NCBI GenBank assembly: GCA_023954375.1
Contig: JAMLIC010000006.1
Span: 210,972 to 272,689, forward strand
Direction of reading: 5' to 3'
DNA length: 61,718 nt
From: Planctomycetota bacterium
Lineage (GTDB): Bacteria; Planctomycetota; J058
The translations under genes were made by a program, and so were the position numbers. Below the pieces are notes generated by a model. The model saw nothing but the letters and a program-made list of their open reading frames with translations. It did not search any database and had not been told where the DNA came from. Positions 3,373-50,663 of this stretch are shown piece after piece (positions within the stretch are counted from its first letter, which is position 1; every line of letters starts with the position of its first letter).

Positions 3373-5808
3373 CTACGCCACGAGCCGGACCTCGGCCTCG
3401 AGCACGACGCCGCGCGCCTCGCGGACGCGGCGCCGCACCTCGCAGGCGAGGGCCAGGACGTCGTCGACGGTGGCGTCGCCGTCGTTGACGATGAAGTTGG
3501 CGTGCACGGGCGAGACGCGGGCGCCGCCGCGCGAGAGGCCCTTGAGGCCGCAGGCGTCGATCAGGCGGCCCGCGCTGTCGCCGGGCGGGTTCTTGAAGAA
3601 GCAGCCGGCGCTGCGCGCGTCGAGCGGCTGGATCGCGGCCTTGCGGCGCAGGGCCTCCTGGCGCGCGGCCTTGAGGGCGTCGCGGTCGCCGCGCTCGAGC
3701 TCGAGCTCGACCGCGAGCACGTAGGCGCCGTCGAGGTCGGCGCCGCGGTAGCGGAGGCCGAGCGCCGCGCGCGGGAGCCAGCGGGCGACGCCGTCGCGGC
3801 CGAGGGCGCGGACGCGCCGCACGCGGTCGCCGATCGCCCCGGCCCCGGCCGGCCCGCCGGCGTTGCCGGCCAGCGCGCCGCCGATCGTGCCCGGGATCCC
3901 GGCGAAGCGCTCGAGGCCGGCGAGGCCGTGGCGCTCGGCCAGGCGGATCAGGCCCGGGAGCGGCTCGCCCGCGGCGGCGCGCACGACGGGGCCCAGGACC
4001 TCGGCCCCGCGCAGGGCCCGGCAGGAGATCACGGCCGCGTCGACGAGCGGGCTGGCGAAGAGGACGTTCGAGCCGCCGCCGAGCGGCACGACCGGCACGC
4101 CGTGGGCCTGGAGGGCGCGCAGGACGCGCACGGCCTCGGCCTGGGTGCGCGGCTCGGCGAAGAAGCGCGCCCGCCCGCCGGCCTTGATCGTCGTGCGCGG
4201 GCCGAGCGGCTCGCCCGTGCGCACGAGGCCGGGCAGCGCCTCGAGGACCCGCGCCTCGAGCCCCTCGCCGCCGCGGCGGAAGCGGCCGCTGGCCACCTTG
4301 GCCAGCGGGGGGAGCGGCTCGTCGCTGCGGCGCGCCAGGCGCTCGAGGGCCCGGTGCGCGGCGCCGCTGATCCGGCCGGCGCCCATGAACAGGGCCACGT
4401 CGCCCTTCTGCAGCAGGCGCACGGCCGTGCCGATCAGGGCGTCGGGGTCGCCGCCGGGGACGGCCTGCGTCCCGGGTGCGCGGGCGCGCACGGCGCGGGC
4501 GAGGGCGGCCGCGGTGACCGTGCGCACGTCGTCGGGGCGATCGCGGCAGGTGTAGACGTCGGCCACGACGACGCGGTCGGCGCGGGCCAGGGCGTCGACG
4601 AAGCCGTCCCAGTGCTCGCGCGTGCGGCTGGCCTGGTGCGGCTCGAACAGCGCCACGACGCGCCGGCCCGGGTGGCGGGCGCGGGCGGCGTCGATCACGG
4701 CGCGGAGCGCCGTCGGGTGGTGGGCGTAGTCGTCGACGACGAGGACGCCGCCCGGCTCGCCGAGCACGTCGTAGCGGCGGCGGACGCCCGTGAAGCCCTC
4801 GACCGTGGCGGCGGCCTGCTCGGGGGCGACGCCCGCGCACACGGCGGCGGCGATCGCGGCCAGCGCGTTGGCGACGTTGTGGGCGCCCGGGACCGAGAGG
4901 CGGACGCGCGCGCGCGGCCGGCCGTCGAGGGCGAGCGTGAAGCGGCCGAGGCCGTCGTCGTAGGTGACGTCGCGCGCGGCGAGGCGCGCCTCGCCGCCGA
5001 CCGAGAAGGTCATGACGGTCACGTCGGGGCGGGCGTGGCGCACGGTCTCGGCCACGCGCAGCGCGGCCGGCCAGTCGGCCGAGGCGACGAGCGCGCCGCC
5101 CTCCTGCACGCCCGCGGCGAACTCGACGAAGGCAGAGACGATCTCGTCGAGGCCGCCCTGGTAGCAGTCGAGGTGGTCCTCCTCGACGTTGAGGACGACG
5201 GCGCACGCGGGCCGGTAGTGCTTGAACGAGCGGTCGTACTCGCAGGCCTCGAGCACGAGCTCCGGCCCCTGGCCGAGCGCGGCGTTGGCCGGCAGGTCCT
5301 TGGGGGCGCCGCCCACGAGCCAGCTCGGGTCGCGGCCGCAGGCGCGCAGGACGTGCGCCGTGAGCGCCGTCGTCGTCGTCTTGCCGTGGGTGCCGGCGAT
5401 CGCCACGCCGCGCCGGGCGGCGACGAGCGCGCCGAGCGCCTCGGCGTACTTGACCACCGGCACGCCGCGGCCGATCGCGGCCACGAGCTCGGGGTGGTCG
5501 GGCGGCAGCGCCGCCGTCGCGACGAACAGGTCGGCGTCGGCCGGGAGGTTCGCGGCCTCCTGCCCGTAGCGCACCTCGATCCCGGCCGCCTCGACGGCCT
5601 CCGAGAGCGGCCCGCGCGCCTGGTCGGAGCCCAGGACGCGGTGCCCCAGCCCGGCGATCAGGCGCGCCAGGCCGGAGAGGCCGGTGCCGCCGATCCCCGA
5701 GCAGAAGACGACGAGCGGGGCGTCGCCGGCCGGCCGCGCCATGCGCCCGAGCAGCGCGCGCCGACGCGACAGCGTCCCCGAGACCGCCAGGCCAGCGTCC
5801 ACGGTCAT
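3373..5808 (-). CDS. murC/murB: UDP-N-acetylmuramate--L-alanine ligase (MurC) fused in frame to UDP-N-acetylenolpyruvoylglucosamine reductase (MurB); 811 aa with no stop between the domains
   Basis: N-terminal MurC motifs (GIGGTGLSGLA, GTHGKTTTT, DDYAHHP) and C-terminal MurB motifs (GPRTTIKAGGRARFF, GGGSNVLF, SAGCFFKNP) share one open frame. The start may instead be the ATG at 5742. Confidence 0.85.
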   Translation of the reverse strand: MTVDAGLAVSGTLSRRRALLGRMARPAGDAPLVVFCSGIGGTGLSGLARLIAGLGHRVLGSDQARGPLSEAVEAAGIEVRYGQEAANLPADADLFVATAALPPDHPELVAAIGRGVPVVKYAEALGALVAARRGVAIAGTHGKTTTTALTAHVLRACGRDPSWLVGGAPKDLPANAALGQGPELVLEACEYDRSFKHYRPACAVVLNVEEDHLDCYQGGLDEIVSAFVEFAAGVQEGGALVASADWPAALRVAETVRHARPDVTVMTFSVGGEARLAARDVTYDDGLGRFTLALDGRPRARVRLSVPGAHNVANALAAIAAAVCAGVAPEQAAATVEGFTGVRRRYDVLGEPGGVLVVDDYAHHPTALRAVIDAARARHPGRRVVALFEPHQASRTREHWDGFVDALARADRVVVADVYTCRDRPDDVRTVTAAALARAVRARAPGTQAVPGGDPDALIGTAVRLLQKGDVALFMGAGRISGAAHRALERLARRSDEPLPPLAKVASGRFRRGGEGLEARVLEALPGLVRTGEPLGPRTTIKAGGRARFFAEPRTQAEAVRVLRALQAHGVPVVPLGGGSNVLFASPLVDAAVISCRALRGAEVLGPVVRAAAGEPLPGLIRLAERHGLAGLERFAGIPGTIGGALAGNAGGPAGAGAIGDRVRRVRALGRDGVARWLPRAALGLRYRGADLDGAYVLAVELELERGDRDALKAARQEALRRKAAIQPLDARSAGCFFKNPPGDSAGRLIDACGLKGLSRGGARVSPVHANFIVNDGDATVDDVLALACEVRRRVREARGVVLEAEVRLVA

Positions 5809-13532: not shown

Positions 13533-16500
13533 TCAGGCCCCGGCGGGCAGGACGACGGGCAACGGCGTCGGGGCCGCGTCCTTCGGGCAGACCCAGCGCA
13601 GGGCGGCCCGGGCGTCGGCCCAGCCCTCGAGCAGCGCCCGGGCGCGCGCGCTGCCGGTCTCGGCGGCGTAGTCCTCGAGGAGCGCGCGCAGCGCCTGCCA
13701 CCGCGCGTCGTCGACCTCGTCGGCCACGCGGGCGTCCTTGTGGAGGTGGCGCTCGAGGAGGCCGTCGGGGTCGTGGACGACGACCTCGCCGCCGGTCAGG
13801 CCCGAGCCGAGCGCGTGGCCGCAGCGGCCGAGGACGACGCCGAGGCCGCCGGTCATGTATTCGAAGGCGTACTTGCCGACCCCCTCGGCCACGAGCACGG
13901 CGCCCGAGTTGCGGACGCCGAAGCGCTGCCCGGCGCGCCCGGCGACGTAGATGACGCCGCCCGTGGCCCCGTAGGCCGCGGCGTTGCCGACGAGGTGCGC
14001 CTCGCCGGGGCGCCGGGCGGGCGGCGGCACGACCACGATCCGCGCGCCCTGGCCCATGACCTCGCCGACGGTGTCGTTGGCGTAGCCCTCGAGGCGCAGG
14101 TGCATCCCTCTCGTCGCCGCGAAGCCGAAGCCCTGGCCGGCGACCCCCTGGCAGCGGAGCGTGACCTCGCCCGCGAGGTCGCCGCGGGCGATCGCCCCGG
14201 CGATCGTGGCGCCCACCGCCTGGTCGTCGGTCGTGAGCGTGCGCTCGAGGACGGCGCGCGGGCTCGAGGCCAGGGCCGTCCGGGCGGCGGCGAGCAGCGC
14301 CTCGCCCGAGGCCGACGCGCCGCGCGGCGTCAGCTCGCCCGCGCCCGCCGCCTGCGTCGGGTCGGGGCGCAGGTCGTGCAGGAGCTCCAGCAGGTCGACG
14401 CGGTCGAGCCGCGCGTTGCCGGTGGGCGGCTGCTCGAGCAGGTCGACGCGGCCGACGAGGTCGCGCGGGTGGCGGAGGCCCAGCTCGGCCAGGAGGCGCC
14501 GCACGTGCTCGGCGACGCACGTCAGGTAGCGGATCACGCCCTCGCGCGCCTCGACGTAGCGCAGGTCGAGCTCGGAGGTCTTGAGGTCGTCGCGGTGCTT
14601 GACCATGAACCGCTGGAAGACCTTGGCCGTGTCGTTGGTCGTCAGCCCCACCGGGCAGTTGCCGGCGTTGCAGCCCCGGCAGAAGACGCAGTTCTCGGCC
14701 ACGAGCAGCGCCGTGCCGAAGGCGACCTCGTCGGCGCCGAGCGCGAGCGCCTTGACCACGTCGAGGCCGTACTTGATCCCGCCGTCGCCGACGAGGCGGA
14801 CCTGGTGGCGGACGCCGTTCTCGACCAGGTACTGGTGCGCCTCCGACAGCCCGCGCTCGAGCGGCGTGCCGGCGTGGAAGATCGAGCCGCTCGACGCGGC
14901 GCCGGTGCCGCCCGAGCAGCCGCTGACCGTGATCACGTCGGCGCCGGCCTTGGCCACGCCGACGACGATCGTGCCCAGCCCGGTGATGCTCGGCACCTTC
15001 ACGCCGATCAGGGCGCGCGGGTTCACCTCGCGCAGGTGGCGGATCAGCTGGGCGAGGTCCTCGATGCTGTAGATGTCGTGGTGCGGCGGCGGCGAGATCA
15101 GGTCGACGCCGGCGCGCGTCTTGCGGATCGCGGCGATCTCGGCCGTGACCTTGTGCGCCGGGAGGTGGCCGCCCTCGCCGGGCTTGGCGCCCTGGCCGAT
15201 CTTCACCTCGAGCTCGTCGGCGCCGGACAGGTAGGCCGCGTCGACGCCGAAGCGCCCCGAGGCGACCTGCCGCACGCGGTTGCGGTCGTCCGCCCAGGGG
15301 CCGCCGGGGTTGCGGCGCTCGTCCTCGCCGCCCTCGCCCGAGTTCGAGCGCGCGCCGAAGTGGTTGAAGGCCGCCGCGATCGCCCGGTGGGCGGTCGAGT
15401 GGAGCGCCCCGTGCGACATGGCCGCGCCGCGGAAGCAGGCGCGGACCACCTCGCCCGCGGGCGCGACCTCGTCGAGCGGGAGCGGCGCCGGCGCGGGGCG
15501 CAGGCGCAGGAGGTCGCGCAGGTAGACGGGGCCGGTGGCCTCGAGCGCGGCGACGAAGCGGTCGTAGTCGCCGCCCTCGTTGCCGTTGCGGGCGACCATC
15601 TGCAGGGCGTTGGTGACCTCCTTGCGGTAGACCGACACGTCGCGCGGCCGGGAGAGCTCGTCGCCGGTCTTCGCGCGCAGGGCGAGGTCGGCGTAGACGT
15701 CGTCGAGGGTCACGCCGCCGACGAACGACTCGGTCCCGGCGAGGAAGTAGTCGACGACGTCGGGCGAGAGGCCCACCGCCTCGAACAGCGCCGACCCGCG
15801 GTAGCCGGCGAGCGTGGGGATGCCCATCTTCGACATGATCCGCCGGAGCGTGCCCACGAGCGCGCCGACGACGCTCTCGCGCGCCTGGGCCGGCTCGGTG
15901 CGCGGCGCCTCCTCGGCGAGGTGCAGCATGGCGTAGGGGTTCACGGCCGTGGCCCCGTAGGCGATCAGCACGGCCAGGTCGTGCCCCTCCTGCACCTCGC
16001 CGGTCGACACGACGATGCTCGAGTCGCGGCGCAGCGCCCCGGCCTCGGCCGCCAGGCGCCGGTGGAGCGCGCCCACGACGAGCAGCACGGGCAGGGGCAG
16101 GCGCCCCGTGCGGGTGGCCTCGCGGTCGCTCACGACCAGGACCGCCACCTTCTCGTCGCGCACGGCCGCGAGCCCCTGCTGGCAGAGGGCGTGGATGCGG
16201 TCGGCGATCGCGCCCGCGCCGCCGCGGTCGTCGAACGTGGCGTCGAGCACGCGCGCCCGCACCTCGTCGCCGGCGAGGATCGCGGCCAGCTGGCCGTTGG
16301 TGAGCACGGGGTGGGGCAGGCGGTACTGCGGGCTGACCTGGTAGACCCCGCGGCGGTCGAGCCGCGGCGAGCGGCCGAGGAACACGGTCAGGTCCATGGC
16401 CTCGCCCTCGCGGAGCGGGTCGATCGGGGGGTTGGTGACCACGGCGACGATCTGGTCGAGGAAGCCGTAGAGCCGCGCCTGGCCCTCGGTGAACGCCGCC

Positions 16501-17948
16501 AGCGGGCGGTCGTTGCCCATGGAGTGCACGGGCTCCTTGCCGGCGCGGGCCATCTCGTGGAGCCGCTGCAGGCGCTCCCTCGTCCAGCCGAACGTGTTGA
16601 GCGCGCGGACGGGGAGCTTCTCGGCGGGCGCCTCCTCGACGAGCGGCACGAGCTCGGTGGTCGAGACGTCGCCGAACGACAGCTCGCGGTCGGCGCGCTC
16701 GAGCACCCAGCGCGTGCTGCGCTCGGGCGTGACCAGCTCGCCCGTCTGGAGGTCGGCGACGAGCATGCCGCCGGGCTCGAGCTGCCCGTCGCGCACGACC
16801 TCGGCGGGGTCGAAGGGCACCGCGCCGATCTCGCTGGCGACGACGACGCGGCCGCCCTCGAGCTCGGCCCAGCGCAGGGGGCGCAGCCCCATGCGGTCGA
16901 GCATGGCGACGAGCGTCAGGCCGTCGCTGGCGACGAGCGCCGCCGGGCCCTCCCACGCGCCGAGCGTGCCCAGCACGCGCTGGCTGGCCTCGAGGAACCG
17001 GTGCTCCTCGGGCGCGAGGGCCTCCTCGCGCCAGCTGGGCGGGACCATGCGCCGGAGCGCCTCGGCCAGGCCCCCCTTGCAGCGCGTCGTCGCCAGCAGC
17101 TCGACGGCGCGGTCGAGCTGCGCCGAGTCGCTGCCGTGGCGCATGAGGACCTTGTGCACGCCGAGGACGCGCTCGACGTCGCGCACGGCGCGCGTGTTGG
17201 CGCGGATCGTGTTGATCTCGCCGTTGTGCGCCAGGAGCCGGAAGGGCTGGGCGAGGTTCCAGTTGGAGAAGGTGTTGGTCGAGAAGCGGCGGTGGCCGAG
17301 GACGACGCGCGTCGTGAGCTCGGGGTCGCGCAGGTCGGGGTAGAAGCGCGGGAGCTGCGCCCCGGTCGCCAGCGCCTTGTAGACGACCGTGCGCGGCTGG
17401 AGCGACGGGAGCGCCAGCTGGCCGGCGAACTGGTCCTCGAGGCGGCGGCGGACGTCGAACAGCTCCTTGGCGAGCTGCGCCTCGACCCGGTGCCCGCGGC
17501 CGACGAGGACCTGCCAGATCGACGGGACGTCGGCGCGCGCGCGGGCGCCCAGGGCGTCCGGGTCGGTGGGCACGCGCCGCCAGCCCAGCGGCTGGAGCCC
17601 CTCGCGCCGGGTGAGCGCGTCGACCTCGCGCTGCAGCTCGCGGGCGTTGCGCTCGCCGTGGACGAAGAACACCGTGCCGACGACGAGCGGCTCGTCCTGC
17701 GGCAGATGGCGGCCGGGCGCGATGAACCGCTCGAAGTAGCTGCGCTCGGCGCGCAGGAGCAGCCCCGCGCCGTCGCCCGTGTCGTCGAGGCAGCCGCCGC
17801 GGTGCTCCATGCAGGCGATCGCCTGGACCGCCTGCCGGATCAGGTCGTGGCTCGGCCCCGCGCGCAGCTCCGCCAGGGCGACGACCCCGCAGCCCCCGCG
17901 CCCGGGGTGCTGGCGGATCACGTCGCGGCGGCGCTGGCGGTCGATCAT
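13533..17948 (-). CDS. gltB: glutamate synthase large subunit (GltB); no gltD in the window
   Basis: MIDRQ...CGVVA N-terminal glutaminase Cys, FMN-binding and GXGXG domains throughout the 1471 aa. The long upstream extension of ORF 13533..18566 is an artefact. Confidence 0.95.
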   Translation of the reverse strand: MIDRQRRRDVIRQHPGRGGCGVVALAELRAGPSHDLIRQAVQAIACMEHRGGCLDDTGDGAGLLLRAERSYFERFIAPGRHLPQDEPLVVGTVFFVHGERNARELQREVDALTRREGLQPLGWRRVPTDPDALGARARADVPSIWQVLVGRGHRVEAQLAKELFDVRRRLEDQFAGQLALPSLQPRTVVYKALATGAQLPRFYPDLRDPELTTRVVLGHRRFSTNTFSNWNLAQPFRLLAHNGEINTIRANTRAVRDVERVLGVHKVLMRHGSDSAQLDRAVELLATTRCKGGLAEALRRMVPPSWREEALAPEEHRFLEASQRVLGTLGAWEGPAALVASDGLTLVAMLDRMGLRPLRWAELEGGRVVVASEIGAVPFDPAEVVRDGQLEPGGMLVADLQTGELVTPERSTRWVLERADRELSFGDVSTTELVPLVEEAPAEKLPVRALNTFGWTRERLQRLHEMARAGKEPVHSMGNDRPLAAFTEGQARLYGFLDQIVAVVTNPPIDPLREGEAMDLTVFLGRSPRLDRRGVYQVSPQYRLPHPVLTNGQLAAILAGDEVRARVLDATFDDRGGAGAIADRIHALCQQGLAAVRDEKVAVLVVSDREATRTGRLPLPVLLVVGALHRRLAAEAGALRRDSSIVVSTGEVQEGHDLAVLIAYGATAVNPYAMLHLAEEAPRTEPAQARESVVGALVGTLRRIMSKMGIPTLAGYRGSALFEAVGLSPDVVDYFLAGTESFVGGVTLDDVYADLALRAKTGDELSRPRDVSVYRKEVTNALQMVARNGNEGGDYDRFVAALEATGPVYLRDLLRLRPAPAPLPLDEVAPAGEVVRACFRGAAMSHGALHSTAHRAIAAAFNHFGARSNSGEGGEDERRNPGGPWADDRNRVRQVASGRFGVDAAYLSGADELEVKIGQGAKPGEGGHLPAHKVTAEIAAIRKTRAGVDLISPPPHHDIYSIEDLAQLIRHLREVNPRALIGVKVPSITGLGTIVVGVAKAGADVITVSGCSGGTGAASSGSIFHAGTPLERGLSEAHQYLVENGVRHQVRLVGDGGIKYGLDVVKALALGADEVAFGTALLVAENCVFCRGCNAGNCPVGLTTNDTAKVFQRFMVKHRDDLKTSELDLRYVEAREGVIRYLTCVAEHVRRLLAELGLRHPRDLVGRVDLLEQPPTGNARLDRVDLLELLHDLRPDPTQAAGAGELTPRGASASGEALLAAARTALASSPRAVLERTLTTDDQAVGATIAGAIARGDLAGEVTLRCQGVAGQGFGFAATRGMHLRLEGYANDTVGEVMGQGARIVVVPPPARRPGEAHLVGNAAAYGATGGVIYVAGRAGQRFGVRNSGAVLVAEGVGKYAFEYMTGGLGVVLGRCGHALGSGLTGGEVVVHDPDGLLERHLHKDARVADEVDDARWQALRALLEDYAAETGSARARALLEGWADARAALRWVCPKDAAPTPLPVVLPAGA

Positions 17949-18027
17949 CGCGTGCTCCCTGGGGCGGCTTCCGGAAAGCGCCCATGATGGCGCCCATGAC
18001 GCGTCGCGCAAGCTACGCTCCGGGGCG

Positions 18028-18816
18028 ATGGCCCTCCGGCTGCTCGTGCCCCTCGACCGCCTCCCTGCCGACGAGCGCGGTGAGGCCGCGAGCGCGCTGG
18101 GCGAGGCGCTGACGCGTCGTCTCGCGGCGATGTTCCCCGCGGACGAGGGGCACGAGCACGTGGCGATCCCCGACCCGCCCGCCGGCCGCGACGACCCGCC
18201 TGCCCTGCTCGAGGTCCGCGTGCGGAGGGGCGCGCGCCAGGGCCTGCGCGTGCGCCTCGAGGTCCTCGACGGCGAGGGCACGCTGCGCGTCCTCGTCGCC
18301 GCCCGGCCGCCCTGGACGGTGCGCGCCGGCCAGGGGGGCCTGATGCTGGCGACCGTCGTCGCCCTGCCGTTCGCCGCGTGGGCGTTCGTCCGGGGCGGCG
18401 GGCAGGCGGCGGCCGTGATGATCGGGCTCCCGGTGTTCCTCGCCGTCGCCGGCCTCGGCCTCGCGCTGCTCTCGCCCCTGCGCTGGGCGGCGGAGGCCGC
18501 CCTCGCGCCCGACCTGGCCCGCGCGGCCGACGCCGTGACCGCGGCGCTCGACGACCTCCGCGCCACGTGGCCGGACGTCGGCGCGGCGCGTCGGGGGTGG
18601 TCGCCGCTGGCGGTCGACGCGGGCGTCGTCGCGGGCGCCGCGCTGACCGCGGGGGCGCTGACGGGCGTCGCGCTCTCGCCCGACCTCGACGAGGGGTGGG
18701 TGTGCCTGCTGGCGCCGGCGATCGCGTTCGCCGGCTGCGTCGGGCTGGCCTACCTCGTGGGGGTCGCGTCGGCGGCGCTGGGTTTCGCCGAGGGCGAGCG
18801 GTTCGACGACGCGTGA
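18028..18816 (+). CDS. hypothetical membrane protein
   Basis: ATG at 18028. Several hydrophobic helices. Divergent from gltB. Confidence 0.35.
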   Translation: MALRLLVPLDRLPADERGEAASALGEALTRRLAAMFPADEGHEHVAIPDPPAGRDDPPALLEVRVRRGARQGLRVRLEVLDGEGTLRVLVAARPPWTVRAGQGGLMLATVVALPFAAWAFVRGGGQAAAVMIGLPVFLAVAGLGLALLSPLRWAAEAALAPDLARAADAVTAALDDLRATWPDVGAARRGWSPLAVDAGVVAGAALTAGALTGVALSPDLDEGWVCLLAPAIAFAGCVGLAYLVGVASAALGFAEGERFDDA

Positions 18817-18900: not shown

Positions 18901-19473
18901 GTGACCACCGTGCGGACTCGCGCTGCAACCTGGCTCCTCCTCCTGGCGGGCTGCGCGGCGGCGCCGACCGCCGCGCCCCCTCGCGACCCGGCGCCCTGGT
19001 CCCTGGGAGCTCGCGGGGCCGACCGCGAGGAGCGCGCCCTCGAGCCGCAGCAGGACGGGGTCTTCGTGGAGGCCCGGATCTGGGCGCTGCGCCAGGTCCG
19101 TGGGCCGGGGCAGGTGGAGGTCTGCGACGACCCACGCCGCGTGCTGCTGGCGGTCGAGCGCCTGTGCGACGTGGTGGCGTACGAGTCCGGCGCCCTGTCG
19201 CTGCTCTTCGTCGCCGGTGGCCTGGCGGCGCCCGGAGAGGACGTGCTGCTCACCTTGACCTCGGGCTGCGGCCTCTGGCCGCTTCACGGCAGCCTCCGTG
19301 TGCGCGTGGACCCGCGGCCAGGCCGCTCGCGCGTCGCGCTGGAGGTCGGCAGCGACGCCGTCAGGGTGGACGCCGACGTGGAGCTCGACCTCGTCCCGGG
19401 GCGGCTGGCGCTGATCTCGGCGCCCGTGCCCGGGGAGGACGCGGCCGTGCTCGTGTTCCTCGCGGCGAGCTGA
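18901..19473 (+). CDS. hypothetical lipoprotein
   Basis: GTG start. LLLLAGCAAAP lipobox. Confidence 0.45.
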   Translation: MTTVRTRAATWLLLLAGCAAAPTAAPPRDPAPWSLGARGADREERALEPQQDGVFVEARIWALRQVRGPGQVEVCDDPRRVLLAVERLCDVVAYESGALSLLFVAGGLAAPGEDVLLTLTSGCGLWPLHGSLRVRVDPRPGRSRVALEVGSDAVRVDADVELDLVPGRLALISAPVPGEDAAVLVFLAAS

Positions 19474-19493
19474 CACCTGCTCAGGCGACGGGT

Positions 19494-20948
19494 CTACGCG
19501 CCCGCCGGCGCGCCGAAGCCGAGGAAGCGGCGCTCGAGCGCGTGGCCGCTCGACGTCAGCCGCTCGAGGGCGGCGCGCAGGCGGGCCGCGTCGATCCGGG
19601 CCAGCCCCTCGCCGTCCACGTCGCCCGAGAGGATGGCGTCGAAGATCGTCTGCTTCATCAGCTCGCGCAGGAACGCCGGCGTGGCGCCCTCGGTCGCCGC
19701 GACGATCGGCTCGAGCGCCGCGTCGTCCACGTGGGCGCGCCGGGCGTAGAGGCGCAGGAGCCTCCTGCGCAGCGCCGCCGACGGGAGCGGGAACTCGAGC
19801 GCCACGTCGACCCGCCCGGGGCGCTGCGCGAGCGCCTCCTCGAGGACGTCCGCGCGGTTGGTGGTGAAGACGAACAGGACCTGCTCGTTCGAGGGCACGC
19901 CGTCGAGCTCGTTGAGGAGCGCGCCGAGGACGCCGCTGCGCTCGCCGTCGCGCCCCGTGGCGACCAGGTCGATGTCCTCGAACAGGAGGAGCGCGGGGGC
20001 GAGCTTGCGCGCGAGCGCGAACGCGCCGCCCACCCGCGCGAGGTCGTTGCCGGTGAGGAGGAGGCTGGTGAAGCCCTGGAGCTGCGAGACGAGCAGGTTG
20101 CACACCATGCTCTTGCCCGTGCCCGGCGGGCCGTGGAGGAGCACGCCGCGCTTGAGGTCCAGGCCGTTGCGCGCCAGCTCCGGGCCCCGGGCCACGTAGT
20201 CGAAGACCTCGCGGCGCAGCCGGGCGAGCAGCTCGTCGGGCAGGATGAGCTGGTCCCACCCGGTCGGCCGGTGCGGGACGATCGTGGCCTCCTTGACCTC
20301 GTCCTTGTAGTCGACGCGCGGCTGGATCAGCCGGCCCCGGAGGACGCTGCGCGCGCGCTCCCACTCGACGAGCGCGCGCACGAAGCGCTCCGCCACGCCG
20401 GGCGCCGCGCCGACCGCCTCGACGCGGAAGGAGGCGTCGAGCGTGTCCTGCGTGAGGAGGAGCAGGGCCACCACCGGGGTGCCCTCGAAGGTCGCGAGGG
20501 CCAGCCCGCGGAGGAGGCCGCGGCGCAGCTCGCCCGGCGCCACCTCGAGCTCGGCGTCGGCCGCGGCGGTCGGCTCGAGGCCGACGAAGTCGCCCAGGGC
20601 GGTGACCCGCGCCGGGCGGAGGACGTCGGCCAGCGTGCGGCGGGCGTAGCTCTCGCCCACGTCGAGGCCGATCACCTCCGCCGAGTGCGCGGCCAGGAAG
20701 TCCGTGACGACCACCGCGACGTTGGTGGCGAGGTACCTGGGGAAGTCGTGCTCGACGACCCGCGGGCCGACCTCGTCCTCGCCGCCGGTCAGGCCCAGGT
20801 GCCGCCGGACCCGCTCGTTGACCGAGGCGCGCACCTTCGCCGCCGACTCGCGCCGGAGCCGGAACCACGCGATCAGGGCCACGGCGCCGACGGCGGCGAC
20901 GAGGGCGAGGGCGAGGCCGACCAGCCCCGCCGCGAGCAGCTCGAGGGC
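19494..20948 (-). CDS. membrane-anchored AAA+ ATPase (classic AAA clade); the true start is uncertain (GTG at 20882, or a non-canonical start right after the upstream TAA)
   Basis: Walker A GPPGTGKS, Walker B LLLFEDID, sensor-1 TTNR, Arg finger RPGRVD. The N-terminal TM helix is complete only if translation begins upstream of the GTG at 20882. Confidence 0.8.
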   Translation of the reverse strand, partial: ALELLAAGLVGLALALVAAVGAVALIAWFRLRRESAAKVRASVNERVRRHLGLTGGEDEVGPRVVEHDFPRYLATNVAVVVTDFLAAHSAEVIGLDVGESYARRTLADVLRPARVTALGDFVGLEPTAAADAELEVAPGELRRGLLRGLALATFEGTPVVALLLLTQDTLDASFRVEAVGAAPGVAERFVRALVEWERARSVLRGRLIQPRVDYKDEVKEATIVPHRPTGWDQLILPDELLARLRREVFDYVARGPELARNGLDLKRGVLLHGPPGTGKSMVCNLLVSQLQGFTSLLLTGNDLARVGGAFALARKLAPALLLFEDIDLVATGRDGERSGVLGALLNELDGVPSNEQVLFVFTTNRADVLEEALAQRPGRVDVALEFPLPSAALRRRLLRLYARRAHVDDAALEPIVAATEGATPAFLRELMKQTIFDAILSGDVDGEGLARIDAARLRAALERLTSSGHALERRFLGFGAPAGA

Positions 20949-20960
20949 GCTCAGGAGGGG

Positions 20961-21083
20961 TTAGGCCTTGGCGGGCTTCGCCTTGGCGAGCGCCTTGATC
21001 TGCTCGTTCAGGCGGTCCTTCTTGCGCTTGTTGTAGGCGGACTTCTTCTTCAGCTTCGTCTGCGTGCGGTACTTGCGGCCCAT
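20961..21083 (-). CDS. 40-aa lysine/arginine-rich small protein (MGRKYRTQTKLKKKSAYNKRKKDRLNEQIKALAKAKPAKA)
   Basis: ATG with a strong AGGAGG RBS 7 nt upstream and GC3-biased codons. It is in the same frame as the downstream AAA+ ATPase, separated only by TAA. Too short for the ORF track. Confidence 0.45.
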   Translation of the reverse strand: MGRKYRTQTKLKKKSAYNKRKKDRLNEQIKALAKAKPAKA

Positions 21084-21159
21084 GGCGGGTCCTCCTGGGA
21101 TGGTGTGGGTCGCCCATTGAGCCAGCCGGGCGGGCGGCTGGCAAGGGGGAGGCTCGCGG

Positions 21160-24100
21160 TCAGCCCTTCACGACCCCGAGCGGCCGGATCCGCGCCACCT
21201 TCTCGGCCAGGCCGCCCTGGTGGACGACGTCGACGACCTGCGCCACGTCCTTGTAGGCCTCGGGCACCTCCTCGACGACGGTCGCGCGCGAGGCCCCCAG
21301 GACGATGATCCCGAGCGTCTCCTCGAGGCGGCGCGTGACGTTCTCGGCGCCGTGGCGGCGCTTGGCCTCGGAGCGCGAGAGGAGGCGTCCGGCCCCGTGG
21401 CAGGCCGACCCGAACGTGTCCTCGGCGCGCGCGCCGCCCTTGAGCACGAACGAGTAGCGGCCCATGTCGCCCGGAATGATCACGGGCTGCCCCAGCGCGC
21501 GGTAGGCCTCGGGCACGAGGGGGTGGCCCGGCGGCAGGGCGCGCGTGGCGCCCTTGCGGTGCAGGAGGAGGCGCTTCGTCTGGCCGTCGACGGGGTGCTC
21601 CTCGAACTTGGCGATGTTGTGGCACACGTCGTAGACGGTGCGCAGCCGCGTCCTGAAGCGGTCCTTGAACACCAGCCGGGCCCAGTGGGTCATCACCTGC
21701 CGGTTCGTAAAGGCGAAGTTGGCCGCCGACGCCATGGCGCCCAGGTAGCGCCTCGCCTCGGGGCTGTCGATCGGCGCGCAGCAGAGCTGCCGGTCGACGA
21801 GCGGGATGTCGTAGGCCGCCGAGGCCGCGAGCATGGCCGAGAGCGAGTCCTCGCACACCTGGTGGCCGAGCCCGCGCGAGCCCGAGTGGATCATGAGCGT
21901 GATCTGCCCGAGCCGCAGGCCGTAGGCCGCGGCGGTCGCCTCGTCGTGGACCTCGTCGACGACGCCGACCTCGGCGAAGTGGTTCCCCGAGCCGAGCGTC
22001 CCCAGCTGGTCGCGCCCGCGCTGCCGCGCGCGGTGGCTCACCGCCGCCGGGTCGGCCCCCGGGATCCGGCCGGTCTCCTCGACGTGGGCGCGGTCGTCGT
22101 CGGTGGCGTAGCCCTGCTCGACCGCCCAGTCGAGCCCGCGCTCGAGCACCTGCGAGAGCGTGCCGTCGTCGAGGTGCAGCTCCGGGCGCGTCGAGCCGAC
22201 GCCCGAGGGGATCGCGTCGAACAGGGCGCGCGTGAGCTCCTTGAGGCGCGGCTTCACGTCCCCGAGGTGCAGGTCGGAGGCGAGGAGGCGGACGCCGCAG
22301 TTGTGCACGACGACGCCCTCGGCGACGAAGTCGTGCGAGGGGTGGTCGACGGTGATGTCGTAGACGCGGTCGACGTCGGCGCGCGGCCGGATCGCGACGA
22401 CCTCGTCCCACACCGCGCCGGAGTCGCCGAGCCCGAAGGTCGCCTCCTCGAGCCACTCGTCGAGGCGCGGGAACCGCTCCGCCACGCGCACCTGCGCGTC
22501 CGGCTGGCCCCCTCGCCGACCGTGGATCGTTCGCTCGACGAACCGCAGGTTCACCGGCGCCGAAGCCCCGAGCGCCGCGTGGATCCGGGCCGCGGACCAC
22601 CCGTGCCGGCGGCGCAGGTCGAGGGCCTGCTCGCGCGTGGCCCGACGCTCGCCCAGCGCGGCCAGCTTGGCGCGCAGGTACCCCACGGCGGCGGCCGCCT
22701 TCCGGGTCCGGCTCGCGTTGTACTCGAAGCCGATGCGCCCCCAGAGCGCGATCAAGTCGTCCGGGGTGGACGGGAAGATCAGGCGCAGCCGGATCGACGT
22801 GCTGCCGTCCGGCGCGTCGTACTCCTCGCGCTCGGAGAGCGTGCAGGGGCGGACGCCGAAGCGCGCGGCCACCGCGCCCACCTGCTCGAGGAACCGACGC
22901 CCGCTGGCGACGTGCGGCTCGCGCTTGTTCTGGCAGAGGACCGGCGCCTGGAAGCACGTCCCCTGCTCGGGCACCGGCGTGGGGGCGCTCAGCTCCGCGC
23001 CGAAGAAGCCGGCGAGGAACAGCCGCTGCTGCCAGCGCGGCGCCTCATCGAGCCACCGGGGCAGGCCCCAGTCCTGGTCGACGCGCCGGCGGGTCGGGAG
23101 TCCCATGGCCGCGAGCAGCAGGGCCAGCCTCTTGCCCAGCGCAAGCGAGTGCTCCGTGGTCGTGAAGGCGCTCGTGCCGTACCGCGTGGCGACGGCGCAC
23201 CGGCGGGGGCGCGAGTGCACCGACGAGACCCGGAACCAGGGGCGCAGGTCCCCGCGCATCCGCTCGAGGTCCTCGGCCGCGCCGTAGGCGACCGCCTTCA
23301 GCGTCGTGCCGGTGGTGAAGATCGTGCCGTCCCCGAGCACGTAGCCGGCGACCTTCAGCAGGACGGGGAGCGCCGGATGGTCGTCCGTCAGCGGGAGGAG
23401 GTCGTCGAGGCGACGGAGCGCCTGCTCGAGTCCGTTGCCGCCGCTGCCCTTCCCGTGCTGGACCGCGACCTCGCGCACCTGGTCGCGCGAGACGATCACA
23501 CGCCCGGCGGGCGGCTCGTAGGGCACCCCCTCGAAGGGGTGCGTCGCCACGCGGTCGCCCACCACGAGGGCGCCGAGGTCCCGCATGCCGGTCGGGGTGA
23601 GGAAGGGATGGTCGTCGGTCGCGACGACCCGCCGTCCGGCGGCGGTCTCGACCTCGAACACCGGGCGGCGCGGGCGGCGCGCGAGGCCCGCCGCCACGGC
23701 GCCGGCCTGGAACTCGCGCCGGTCAAGGTCGAACACGGTCACCGGGTCGCGGACCTGCCCCTCGACGAGGTCGCGGAGCGGGCGCGTGTAGCCCAGCGCG
23801 GAGGTGACGCGGGTGTCGCCGGCGAGGCAGTTGATGTCGAAGCCGATCCCGCCCGGCGTGACCACCCCGCCTGCGTCAGGGTCGAACGCCGCCACGCCGC
23901 CGATCGGGAAGCCGTAGCCCCAGTGAATGTCCGGCATGGCGAACGAGTGGCCGACGATCCCCGGCAGCGTGGCGACGTTGGCGACCTGCTCGAGGCTACG
24001 GTCCTCGCGCAGGTCGGGGAGGAGGTCCTCGCGCGCGTAGACGATCCCGTCCACGTGCATGGCGCCCGTCTTCGGCACGCGCCAGCGGACGTCGTCGATC

Positions 24101-24228
24101 TTCTCCAGCGGCACCGGCCGCCCCTCGTAGGGCGGCGGCGCGGCGGAGGGGCCCGCGCCTCGCGCCTCGCGCTTGCGGGCCTGCTTCTTGGCCACCTGCT
24201 GGCGGCGCTTGCGGTCCTTGCGGCTCAC
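21160..24228 (-). CDS. rtcB: RNA-splicing ligase RtcB, interrupted by a 510-aa intein
   Basis: The exteins join to GFDIN-CGVRLL, the RtcB active-site motif, and other RtcB motifs are present (GSGNHF, HSGSRGLG, CHNIA). GTG start with an AAGGAGGG RBS. Confidence 0.9.
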   Translation of the reverse strand: MSRKDRKRRQQVAKKQARKREARGAGPSAAPPPYEGRPVPLEKIDDVRWRVPKTGAMHVDGIVYAREDLLPDLREDRSLEQVANVATLPGIVGHSFAMPDIHWGYGFPIGGVAAFDPDAGGVVTPGGIGFDINCLAGDTRVTSALGYTRPLRDLVEGQVRDPVTVFDLDRREFQAGAVAAGLARRPRRPVFEVETAAGRRVVATDDHPFLTPTGMRDLGALVVGDRVATHPFEGVPYEPPAGRVIVSRDQVREVAVQHGKGSGGNGLEQALRRLDDLLPLTDDHPALPVLLKVAGYVLGDGTIFTTGTTLKAVAYGAAEDLERMRGDLRPWFRVSSVHSRPRRCAVATRYGTSAFTTTEHSLALGKRLALLLAAMGLPTRRRVDQDWGLPRWLDEAPRWQQRLFLAGFFGAELSAPTPVPEQGTCFQAPVLCQNKREPHVASGRRFLEQVGAVAARFGVRPCTLSEREEYDAPDGSTSIRLRLIFPSTPDDLIALWGRIGFEYNASRTRKAAAAVGYLRAKLAALGERRATREQALDLRRRHGWSAARIHAALGASAPVNLRFVERTIHGRRGGQPDAQVRVAERFPRLDEWLEEATFGLGDSGAVWDEVVAIRPRADVDRVYDITVDHPSHDFVAEGVVVHNCGVRLLASDLHLGDVKPRLKELTRALFDAIPSGVGSTRPELHLDDGTLSQVLERGLDWAVEQGYATDDDRAHVEETGRIPGADPAAVSHRARQRGRDQLGTLGSGNHFAEVGVVDEVHDEATAAAYGLRLGQITLMIHSGSRGLGHQVCEDSLSAMLAASAAYDIPLVDRQLCCAPIDSPEARRYLGAMASAANFAFTNRQVMTHWARLVFKDRFRTRLRTVYDVCHNIAKFEEHPVDGQTKRLLLHRKGATRALPPGHPLVPEAYRALGQPVIIPGDMGRYSFVLKGGARAEDTFGSACHGAGRLLSRSEAKRRHGAENVTRRLEETLGIIVLGASRATVVEEVPEAYKDVAQVVDVVHQGGLAEKVARIRPLGVVKG
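22300..23829 (-). other. full-length intein with a LAGLIDADG homing-endonuclease domain, inserted before the catalytic Cys of RtcB
   Basis: Block A CLAGDTRV, block B TDDHPF, LAGLIDADG-like motifs VAGYVLGDG and LAGFFGAE, C-terminal VVVHN followed by the +1 Cys. Confidence 0.85.
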
Positions 24229-24286: not shown

Positions 24287-24712
24287 TCACAGGTCGAAGA
24301 TCAGCCGGGCGCGGACGACCCGGCCCCGTCGCGCGAGGGCGGCCTGGTGGTGGGTGACCGCCTTGACCGGCCGCGCGATCGGGTGGCGGGCGGGATCGAA
24401 GCGCTCGCCGTGCGCGGTCCCCTCGATGCGCGTCGCCTCGACGCGGGCCGGCGAGAACCTGGCGCAGAGGAAGCGCTCGACCTCGAACAGGTAGAGGAGC
24501 TCGTTGCCGAGCGCCACGAGGGTCGCCGGCGCGTCGATCCCGGTGACGCTGACCTCGCGCGCCTCGCGCTCGGCGACCGTCTCCGGCGCGTCCGTGAGCA
24601 GGGCCAGGAACGCGCGCGCGCAGGCGGCCACGGCGGCGCCCTCGTCGGGCGCCTCGACGTCGACGCCGAAGTCGCCCGTGTGGTCGAAGAAGCGGTACGA
24701 CGGCTCGGCCAC
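24287..24712 (-). CDS. archease (RtcB activator)
   Basis: FFDHTGDFGVDVEA signature. 141 aa, immediately upstream of rtcB. Confidence 0.8.
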   Translation of the reverse strand: MAEPSYRFFDHTGDFGVDVEAPDEGAAVAACARAFLALLTDAPETVAEREAREVSVTGIDAPATLVALGNELLYLFEVERFLCARFSPARVEATRIEGTAHGERFDPARHPIARPVKAVTHHQAALARRGRVVRARLIFDL

Positions 24713-48905: not shown

Positions 48906-49502
48906 ATGTGGATCGTGCGAAACACGCTGCGCGCCACGCTGAGCCTCCGCGGCCTCGGGGTGGCGATCCCGTCGGGTCAGGAGTTCGACCTCGACGGGCT
49001 CGGCCGCGACCGCGCCGAGGCGAGCAACCAGGTGCAGGTCGCCTTCGAGGAGGGCTACCTGGAGAACGTCTACAAGGCGCCCCGCGAGGGCGGCATCACC
49101 CACACGAGCGTGGGGGTCGCCATGCCCATGGGGCGCGGCGTGTCGGGCGAGGAGCTCGACGCGTTCAAGCGCAGCTTCATGAGCGAGCTGCGCGAGCAGC
49201 TCCCGCAGCTGGCCAACGTGGCCAACGCCTCGCACATCGAGCAGATGCGCCAGGCGATCTCGCAGGACGTCCAGGCCCTCGTGGGCGAGTTCAAGCTCAT
49301 GCGCGACCGCTTCGAGTTTGCCAAGGGCCGCGTCCGGGAGGACCCGACCCTCTCCGACGCCGAGGTCAAGGCCCGGCTGGCGTTCCTCGAGGAGCAGGAG
49401 CGCGAGTTGCTGCGCAACTTCGAGACGGTCGGGCGACGGATCGAGCAGGAGCAGGAGGACGGCGACGTCATGGGCAAGGCCGACCTGCTCTCGAACCTCT
49501 AA
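48906..49502 (+). CDS. hypothetical cytoplasmic protein (198 aa)
   Basis: ATG at 48906. Charged helical composition. Confidence 0.4.
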   Translation: MWIVRNTLRATLSLRGLGVAIPSGQEFDLDGLGRDRAEASNQVQVAFEEGYLENVYKAPREGGITHTSVGVAMPMGRGVSGEELDAFKRSFMSELREQLPQLANVANASHIEQMRQAISQDVQALVGEFKLMRDRFEFAKGRVREDPTLSDAEVKARLAFLEEQERELLRNFETVGRRIEQEQEDGDVMGKADLLSNL

Positions 49503-49532
49503 CCCCGCGGGGACGAACGGAGTCACCCAGAC

Positions 49533-50663
49533 ATGGCCAAGGCAGTCGACATCGGCACCTGCTTCATCGTGGGGGCCCGCCTCGAGCAGGGCAAGGAGGT
49601 GTTCCAGATCGAGCGGGACGCCTTCTTCTCCATGCCGCGCGAGGACTTCGCCGAGGAGATGCTCCACGACGCGGGCGCCAAGTTCGTCATCCGCGGCAAC
49701 GAGCTCTACGTCGTCGGCGAGGACGCGCTCAAGTACTGCATGATCACCGGCAAGCAGGAGTTCTACCGCCGGCCCATGCAGAAGGGCGTCCTCAACCCGG
49801 GCGAGGAGGAGGCGATCCCGCTGCTCGAGCGCCTGATCGAGGGCATCATCGGCAAGCCCGAGCACCCGGGCGAGGTGATCGCCGCCACGATCCCCGCCGC
49901 GCCGCTCGACGCCAACCTCGACGTGACCTTCCACAAGATCGTCGTCGAGCGCTTCCTGAGGAAGCTCGGCTACGACGTGCGGATCCTCAACGAGGCGCTG
50001 GCGATCATCTACGCCGAGTGCCCGCAGGTCGAGGACAACGGCACGAAGGCGCCGTTCTCGGGCGTGGGCGTCTCCTTCGGCGCCGGCATGACGAACCTCG
50101 TCGTCTCGTGGCGCGCCAAGAAGCTGTTCGAGATCTCGGTCGCGCGCGGCGGCGACTGGATCGACCAGAGCGTCTCCAAGGTGCGCAACGTCCCCGTGGG
50201 GAAGGTGACGCACGAGAAGGAGAAGAACCTCGACCTGCGCCGCGTCGACCCGCGCAACGCCCTGCACCTGGGCCTCGAGATCTACTACGACGAGCTGATC
50301 CGGCACGTCCTGCGCGAGTTCCGGGCGCACTTCAAGACGAACCAGACGACGGTCACGAGCCCGCTCGACGTGGTCGTCGCCGGCGGGACCTCGTCGGTGC
50401 CCGGGTTCATCGACCTGTTCAAGCGCATCCTCGAGGAGGAGGGCGCGCCGATCCCGGTCAACGACGTGCGCATGGCCAAGGACCCGCTGCGCACGGTCGC
50501 CAAGGGCGCGCTGGTCGCCGCGGTCTCCATGGAGAAGAAGAAGAAGTCGGACAAGCCGGGCGCGCCGGCGGCGCCGCCGGCCCAGGCGGCGCAGGCCGCG
50601 CCGGCGCCGGCCGCGCCGCCGACGCCCAGCGCGGACGTGATCGACATCGAGGCCGGGGTCTAG
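49533..50663 (+). CDS. actin-like ATPase (ASKHA superfamily; MreB/ParM/actin-type)
   Basis: Phosphate-1 AVDIGTCFIV, phosphate-2 GVSFGAGMTNLVV, adenosine VVAGGTSSVPGF, connect-2 DPLRTVAKGAL. Ala/Pro-rich C-terminal tail. Confidence 0.7.
   Translation: MAKAVDIGTCFIVGARLEQGKEVFQIERDAFFSMPREDFAEEMLHDAGAKFVIRGNELYVVGEDALKYCMITGKQEFYRRPMQKGVLNPGEEEAIPLLERLIEGIIGKPEHPGEVIAATIPAAPLDANLDVTFHKIVVERFLRKLGYDVRILNEALAIIYAECPQVEDNGTKAPFSGVGVSFGAGMTNLVVSWRAKKLFEISVARGGDWIDQSVSKVRNVPVGKVTHEKEKNLDLRRVDPRNALHLGLEIYYDELIRHVLREFRAHFKTNQTTVTSPLDVVVAGGTSSVPGFIDLFKRILEEEGAPIPVNDVRMAKDPLRTVAKGALVAAVSMEKKKKSDKPGAPAAPPAQAAQAAPAPAAPPTPSADVIDIEAGV

Follow-up and report, generated by a model that had tools for sequence, protein, structure and literature searches.

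In Escherichia coli, the translation of adjacent genes can be coupled, which is efficient at a spacing of +3 nucleotides (nt), as in galT/galK and rplK/rplA, and nearly lost by ∼20 nt (PMC12548453, PMC10666635). CUG is one of four near-cognate codons with measurable initiation in this bacterium, where it reaches 0.02–3% of the level of AUG (bioRxiv 10.1101/063800). Very short ribosomal proteins such as bS22 and bL37 are contained in reported ribosome structures and were first found only through them, and bL37 carries no annotation in Mycobacterium tuberculosis H37Rv (PMC10081302). Here, we analyzed a stretch of 61,718 nt from a Planctomycetota bacterium (GTDB lineage J058; GenBank assembly GCA_023954375.1, contig JAMLIC010000006.1, positions 210,972 to 272,689 of the forward strand), referred to as the window, on whose minus strand a 40-codon polybasic open reading frame (ORF), the mini-gene, is followed in the same frame by the gene of a membrane-anchored AAA+ ATPase. 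An earlier note on this DNA had suggested that the short ORF might be a leader peptide of the ATPase or be joined to it by readthrough. Judged by sequence, the ORF is instead a real, conserved and unannotated gene for a small basic protein, and we consider it likely that two unrelated genes were brought together by chance in the lineage of the window, with neither a leader peptide nor a fusion being involved.

The mini-gene extends from an ATG at 21083..21081 to a TAA at 20963..20961 (20961..21083, minus strand; all coordinates are window positions) and encodes MGRKYRTQTKLKKKSAYNKRKKDRLNEQIKALAKAKPAKA, a 40-aa polybasic product without public annotation. A strong Shine-Dalgarno (SD) sequence, AGGAGG, lies at 21091..21096 on the minus strand with a spacer of 7 nt to the ATG, so that the ribosome binding site and the polybasic ORF described in the earlier note are both present. 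The codon bias it had pointed out is complete: all 40 of the 40 codons end in G or C, despite an overall GC content of the ORF of only 60%, and for this reason the frame is not a chance ORF. The window as a whole has a GC content of 75.6%, and third codon positions are ∼100% G/C in its real genes. As a consequence, several long spurious ORFs on both strands accompany each region of the window, and the GC content of third positions (GC3) combined with a lower value at second positions serves as a near-perfect frame marker. A bias of substitutions toward third positions was not seen when the mini-gene was compared with its relatives, as expected with GC3 fixed at 100%; we dropped this measure as uninformative proof of coding and used GC3 itself. 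The exact mini-protein sequence has no match in a collection of ∼15 billion proteins, and hence the version of the window has never been annotated among them. Its TAA is neither an unusual nor an adaptive stop, since TAA ends three of the 32 likely genes of the window.

Word-indexed and exhaustive HMMER searches revealed a family of mini-proteins comprising 19 clusters at 90% identity, with lengths of 35–54 aa. Their consensus, MGRqFRxqTKLKKKAAYNKRRKDRLNaxIKA, gives way to a Lys/Pro/Ala tail that varies between members. Seven residues (M1, G2, K12, K14, Y17, R20, and R24) are invariant, giving the pattern M-G..K.K..Y..R...R. The initial MG, the SD sequence and a length of 35–54 codons are retained in 20 sequences down to 47% identity, and in 20/20 members the stop, be it TGA, TAG or TAA, lies within a few residues of a common position. 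Wider scans of genomes and metagenomes added three loci; the back-translated patterns used in them reach close relatives only. The carriers form a clade of very GC-rich metagenome-assembled genomes (MAGs), of which the named ones are labeled Planctomycetota. Based on the 20-sequence alignment, AlphaFold2 predicts a single helix spanning residues 3–35 with a mean predicted local distance difference test score (pLDDT) of 86. None of the family members bears a functional name, and profile searches of Pfam, NCBIfam, PHROGs, PADLOC and PDB, permissive thresholds included, returned no relative. An RNA element in place of the ORF was rejected, as Rfam gave no match in 19000..22000 at E ≤ 1. By its start, SD sequence, frame, length and codon signature, the mini-gene is thus best described as a free-standing, protein-coding small gene that represents a new family.

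The mini-gene also appears to have expression signals of its own. The 76-nt spacer between the rtcB stop and the mini-ORF ATG (minus strand) holds, besides AGGAGG, promoter-like elements which became apparent in an alignment of seven loci reaching from ∼75 nt upstream to ∼20 nt downstream of the ORF. A −35-like hexamer, TTGCCA (21139..21144, minus strand), belongs to a footprint in which CTTGCC is invariant in all seven loci, and an extended −10-like element, TGGCTCAAT (21116..21124, minus strand), lies 17 nt past TTGCCA, with T, G, G, T, A, A, and T invariant. The overall footprint reads CTTGCC, 17–18 variable bases and the nearly invariant TGG(C/A)T(C/G)AATG, followed by a 5′ untranslated region of variable length. 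A divergent family member (L018) carries TTGACT-N17-TCTAAT at the equivalent place, and all relatives of the mini-gene have GGAG, AGGAG or AGGAGG 5–8 nt before the ATG. A scan with the strict sigma-70 consensus called no promoter at the mini-gene of the window, and we regard the conserved elements as a putative, promoter-like phylogenetic footprint and not as a demonstrated site. An inverted repeat in the promoter spacer (GCCAGCCG/CGGCTGGC) was rejected as an operator or terminator, being not conserved in L013, L017, and L025.

At the 3′ side, relatives of the mini-gene show G+C-rich hairpins after the stop, e.g., GGGGCGCAGCCTGCTGCGCCC in L003, L016, and L017, and this post-stop hairpin is absent behind the mini-gene of the window. 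The terminator scan called nothing on the minus strand; the two "terminators" which it did call fall within the mini-ORF but on the opposite, plus strand, and are irrelevant.

Comparison of the genomic surroundings showed that the mini-gene is found in four contexts. In the first, it lies between alr upstream and a murC-like gene downstream, both co-oriented with it, with a divergently oriented tsaB preceding alr (L025–L030). In the second, alr again lies upstream and is followed, past the mini-gene, by a convergent 189-aa gene and a co-oriented gltB (L003–L012, L016). In the third, a UDP-sugar pyrophosphorylase gene in opposite orientation precedes the mini-gene, and hisIE follows 21 nt on in the same direction (L019–L023). 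The fourth is the window itself, with archease, rtcB, the mini-gene and the AAA+ gene all in one direction. At none of the 27 other mini-gene loci is an AAA+ gene found next to the ORF.

The closest relatives of the window locus, L003 and L016 (the latter from Planctomycetota bacterium ACE_PLA31), show where synteny is broken and where it resumes. Relative to them, gltB (18566..13533, minus strand) is 95% identical in DNA and 96% in protein, the convergent gene (18901..19473, plus strand; 190 aa in the window, 189 aa in the relatives) is 80% identical in nucleotides, and a mini cassette of ∼190 bp (21153..20960) is 87–90% identical; tblastn and blastn comparisons show gltB to be syntenic and synteny to resume at the convergent gene. 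Where L003 and L016 have ∼106 nt of intergenic DNA with a hairpin between the mini-gene stop and the end of the convergent gene, and no ATPase, the window has a 1.47-kb ATPase gene that begins 6 nt past the TAA and leaves 20 nt between its own end and that of the convergent gene. On the upstream side, the alr of the relatives is replaced by archease-rtcB, with the TGA of the intein-containing rtcB (gene at 21160..24228, TGA at 21162..21160, minus strand) lying 7 nt before the conserved cassette; neither alr nor tsaB was found anywhere within the window. By these comparisons, the adjacency of the ATPase gene to the mini-gene is specific to the lineage of the window, and parsimony favors an insertion or rearrangement in that lineage, the ATPase being found at this place in no other one.

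A murC-like ligase gene is present elsewhere in the window (5377..5727, minus strand), and its homolog lies directly behind the mini-gene in the more distant relatives L025 and L028, a difference in position that shows repeated rearrangement around the mini-gene. In the hisIE branch (L019 4001..4843, L020, L021–L023), hisIE has a GTG start and neither an SD sequence nor a terminator after the mini-gene, so that it would be a second downstream gene apparently riding on the expression signals of the mini-gene.

Directly after the TAA, the same frame continues as PLLSALELLAAGLVGLALALVAAVGAVALIAWFRLRR... and on into the ATPase, in agreement with the earlier note; CCC CTC CTG AGC... encodes PLLSALELLAAGLVGLALALVAAVGAVALIAWFRLRRE... 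at the beginning of an ATPase frame of 486 or 488 codons. Counted from the CTG, the gene has 486 codons and then a TAG (19494..20954, minus strand; TAG at 19496..19494), with the AAA domain at about 19785..20144. The match to PF00004 (E = 4.8e-20; 72.8 bits versus a gathering cutoff of 21.2) and intact motifs (Walker A GPPGTGKS, Walker B, the sensor-1 TTN, and RPGR with the arginine finger) identify the product, at the sequence level, as a classic AAA protein. At its N terminus lies a hydrophobic helix of the transmembrane type, LSALELLAAGLVGLALALVAAVGAVALIAW (20865..20954, minus strand), whose third codon positions are all G/C and which is conserved in the two close orthologs. Between this helix and the AAA module, ∼200 residues form a domain that has neither a Pfam match nor a solved relative. 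The next relatives of the ATPase, at ∼45% identity and ∼600 aa, duplicate this ∼200-residue domain and have no helix. No gene for a protease or other partner stands beside the ATPase gene, whose neighbors are the mini-gene and the convergent gene for a 190-aa protein without a Pfam domain. Assignment to the IetAS anti-phage system was rejected: the IteA NCBIfam model scores 59.5 bits versus a cutoff of 510, the PADLOC IetA matches span the AAA module only, and there is no IetS neighbor.

As the earlier note had observed, the first canonical start of the ATPase frame (ATG, GTG or TTG) is a GTG in the middle of the hydrophobic stretch (20880..20882, minus strand), 27 codons past the TAA. The public protein model (NCBI MCO5166552.1, 462 aa) begins at this codon, which has no SD sequence and corresponds to an alanine codon (GCG) in L001. 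The 26 codons from the TAA to the GTG, including the 24 from CTG to GTG, all end in G or C, and the only near-starts ahead of the GTG are CTGs, which stand at codons 3, 8, and 13 counted from the TAA.

The position of the original start is indicated by the orthologs. The databases contain just two close orthologs, namely P0002 (77% identity; locus L001) and P0003 (74%; locus L002). They begin M-[ND]-L-L-[QH]-L-L-G-A-G-L-I, as compared with L-S-A-L-E-L-L-A-A-G-L-V... in the window, and can be aligned with it without a gap over 30 residues up to a conserved Trp30, followed by the RLRRESA motif. The ATG of both aligns exactly with the CTG at 20952..20954 (minus strand), which is separated from the TAA of the mini-gene by the 6-nt spacer CCCCTC (20955..20960, minus strand). 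In L001, the frame is closed by a TAG 9 nt before the ATG, so that translation ahead of the helix could start at no other codon, and AGGA is found 7 nt before this ATG; in L002, the in-frame codons upstream of the ATG lose the GC3 signature. Since both orthologs align from their ATG onward, the ATPase had the helix ancestrally, and in the window a near-cognate codon occupies the ancestral start. Neither ortholog locus has a mini-ORF. The conservation of the mini-ORF upstream of AAA+ orthologs that the earlier note had suggested looking for is therefore absent in both directions, and a clear ATG without a mini-ORF, the finding it had named as speaking against its idea, is what L001 and L002 contain.

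The proposed CTG start has no SD sequence, only a weak AAGG 11 nt upstream. The ATPase itself gives no sign of decay in its sequence: when the three proteins are compared, 34 residue changes are unique to it, versus 37 and 51 for the two orthologs, and within the helix one hydrophobic residue is always exchanged for another.

Taken together, the most likely history would be as follows. A free-standing, self-promoted gene for a 40-aa Lys/Arg-rich single-helix protein came to lie next to the gene of an N-terminally membrane-anchored, classic-clade AAA+ ATPase that has neither a promoter nor an SD sequence of its own, and that, in this genome alone, sits in place of the terminator region of the mini-gene. 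The ancestral ATG of the ATPase now reads CTG, 6 nt past the TAA, and the shared reading frame is incidental. Transcription of the ATPase gene would start at the mini-gene promoter. If the ATPase is still made with its anchor, ribosomes that finish translating the well-translated mini-ORF would go on to initiate at the CUG at a low level, either by termination-reinitiation or by local unfolding. The in-frame arrangement is ordinary, given a prior of 1/3 and a second in-frame tandem pair in the window, in which a TAA at 49500–49502 is followed by a 30-nt spacer with GGAG and an ATG at 49533 (region 49500..49535, plus strand).

Of the mechanisms raised by the earlier note, two survive. Translational coupling agrees with the 6-nt spacing between the co-oriented genes, the lack of a terminator between them and the missing SD sequence of the ATPase gene, but a canonical start (AUG, GUG or UUG) for the downstream gene is absent at the junction. 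The non-canonical start survives and can now be placed at the CTG at 20954, i.e., at the ancestral position, with its use predicted from the DNA. A CTG start, probably aided by termination-reinitiation, is on this basis the best remaining reading, and a low output of a membrane AAA+ protein would not be unreasonable.

Several points weigh against this history. CUG is a poor initiator, whose use in the organism of the window is a prediction from sequence, and the C at 20954 rests on a single MAG consensus. The choice between insertion in the window and loss in the relatives is one of parsimony over few loci. The only fold seen, a predicted hairpin formed between the 3′ part of the mini-ORF and codons 4–9 of the ATPase, which a translating ribosome would open, is not significant relative to shuffled controls (z = −1.75), and coupling through RNA unfolding at this hairpin was accordingly rejected. 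The juxtaposition may furthermore be recent, in which case the intact ORF and the normal substitution rate say little about later selection. Finally, the searches of Pfam, NCBIfam, PHROG, PADLOC, and PDB lend no direct support to a function of the mini-protein. A target-site duplication was considered as the cause of the ATG-to-CTG change: the heptamer CCTGAGC is present at either end of the ATPase gene, at 20955..20949, where it overlaps the CTG start position, and at 19485..19479 (minus strand). This idea was dropped, as 32% of random window pairs share ≥7 nt.

The foremost alternative is an ATPase gene on its way to loss, or one that now yields only an anchor-less protein, its start having been destroyed by the juxtaposition event or by a later A-to-C mutation; the gene would then be untranslated or yield a soluble 462-aa protein from the GTG at 20882. 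We regard this as a real possibility, albeit not a probable one. It would account for the absence of a canonical start ahead of the helix and of an SD sequence before the CTG, where only the AAGG mentioned above is found; in E. coli, CUG reaches ∼1% of the efficiency of AUG (10.1101/063800), and the M-to-L replacement is among only five window-specific changes at columns conserved in the family. At 76% GC, moreover, an ORF stays open for long without selection. However, the GTG is not preceded by an SD sequence and its counterpart in L001 is not a GTG, the 24 codons before it keep a perfect GC3 together with a clean hydrophobic helix, and the gene shows no acceleration of rate and has all catalytic motifs intact. 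These counter-arguments are weak if the inactivation is recent.

It is rather improbable that the MAG consensus is wrong at 20954, or shows a minority variant with its C there, in which case a true ATG would stand 6 nt past the TAA and the locus would be an ordinary close gene pair. A single base separates the CTG from the ATG of both orthologs, and the sequence comes from one metagenome-assembled contig, but per-base errors are rare in short-read assemblies and the site contains no homopolymer or repeat.

We consider it highly unlikely that the mini-ORF is a leader peptide controlling the ATPase, or the N-terminal part of a readthrough fusion attached to it. The common frame, the two sense codons between TAA and CTG, and the missing terminator are compatible with such a link, but at all its other loci the mini-ORF is conserved with no ATPase beside it, and the ATPase is likewise conserved with no mini-ORF, which leaves the regulatory leader peptide of the earlier note without footing: L001 and L002 lack the ORF, and the ORF is conserved by itself in four contexts. 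Nothing supports readthrough, given a stop position conserved in 20/20 members and orthologs that are never fused. TAA is a stop read by both release factors, which disfavors readthrough as well. A fusion of the polybasic segment with the helix and the RLRRE that follows it would place positive charge on both sides of the anchor, apparently at odds with the positive-inside rule, and in-frame tandem genes occur elsewhere in the window. By the same token, a sequencing error creating the TAA in what is a plain fusion, as the earlier note had also envisaged, does not hold, since 20/20 family members end at about the same place and the orthologs begin at the helix. Equally remote is an assembly chimera in which mini-gene and ATPase gene are not adjacent in the organism: both edges of the ∼190-bp cassette (21153 and 20960) do coincide with synteny breaks relative to the closest relatives, but the shared k-mer needed at the join was not seen, the cassette is the genome's own version (87–90% identity with the relatives), neither GC nor GC3 shifts at the junction, and on its distal side the ATPase gene is joined in the normal way to the 190-aa gene and gltB, which are syntenic.

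Several features of the neighboring genes deserve mention in their own right. RtcB, an RNA ligase, is split by a ∼490-aa intein, with PF14890 at residues 151–643 interrupting PF01139, and the gene is preceded by one for archease, the activator of RtcB (24287..24712, minus strand). The called start of RtcB yields a polybasic N-terminal tail, MSRKDRKRRQQVAKKQARKREARG, and may be mis-called. The N-terminus of the convergent 190-aa protein (MTTVRTRAATWLLLLAGCAAA...) resembles that of a secreted protein with a signal or of a lipoprotein, and no Pfam domain is present; identity with the protein of the relatives is only 72%, versus 96% for gltB, which makes this a fast-evolving neighbor.

For annotation, the locus calls for the addition of the small gene and for an ATPase model that is extended to the CTG or flagged there. 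The public 462-aa model starting at the GTG probably cuts off the conserved membrane anchor, CTG being a codon that gene callers do not consider. The locus alters no general principle and reveals no new mechanism, small basic proteins and closely spaced, possibly coupled genes being known kinds. It does offer a natural test case: can a gene without promoter, SD sequence or AUG be rescued by near-cognate reinitiation behind a well-translated short ORF?

As to the function of the mini-protein, its composition points most likely to binding of nucleic acids or the ribosome, which is at the same time a guess. A basic protein with one long helix, a strong SD sequence, a conserved promoter and a shifting genomic position would fit a moderately or highly expressed protein of this kind, and the family, which has no family assignment anywhere, may join the small basic proteins that bind RNA or the ribosome, a set that is growing. 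More specifically, the family might constitute a clade-specific ribosomal or ribosome-associated protein analogous to bS22 and bL37, with its translation co-opted for reinitiation at the CUG of the ATPase; we think this combination unlikely. If it were true, a ribosomal mini-protein would have been missed by annotation owing to its size.

Compared with known systems, the ATPase resembles classic-clade AAA ATPases (p97/Cdc48 D2, NSF, FtsH, PAN) and, as a general type, membrane-anchored single-ring AAA proteins in its PF00004 motifs and its one N-terminal hydrophobic helix, and its closest solved modules are p97/Cdc48 D2 and NSF at ∼1e-41. With galT/galK and rplK/rplA of E. coli, coupled at +3 nt, the window pair has in common the same strand, the short spacing, the lack of a terminator and a weak or absent downstream SD sequence. 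In contrast to these pairs, its downstream start is CUG, and its products are unrelated and not co-conserved and thus do not make up a stoichiometric complex; coupling of the window pair is putative. With regard to near-cognate initiation, the CUG stands at the exact position of the ancestral AUG, and could equally mark a disabled start. For the mini-protein, the closest analogues that we can suggest, with low confidence and in the sense of "works like", are bS22 (33 aa, pI 12.75, PF08213) and bL37 (24 aa) of Actinobacteria. The likeness is one of composition, without a detectable sequence relationship: PF08213 did not match the mini-protein at E ≤ 10, no ribosomal model of NCBIfam did, and the PDB profile search at E ≤ 10 gave 0 matches, although chains of bS22 and bL37 should be in PDB and hence within its range. 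Like the mini-protein, bS22 and bL37 are very short, Lys/Arg-rich and helical; the strong SD sequence of the mini-gene suggests a well-translated protein, in which we liken it to these two, and proteins of this kind often go unannotated, as bL37 does in M. tuberculosis H37Rv and the mini-gene in the window.

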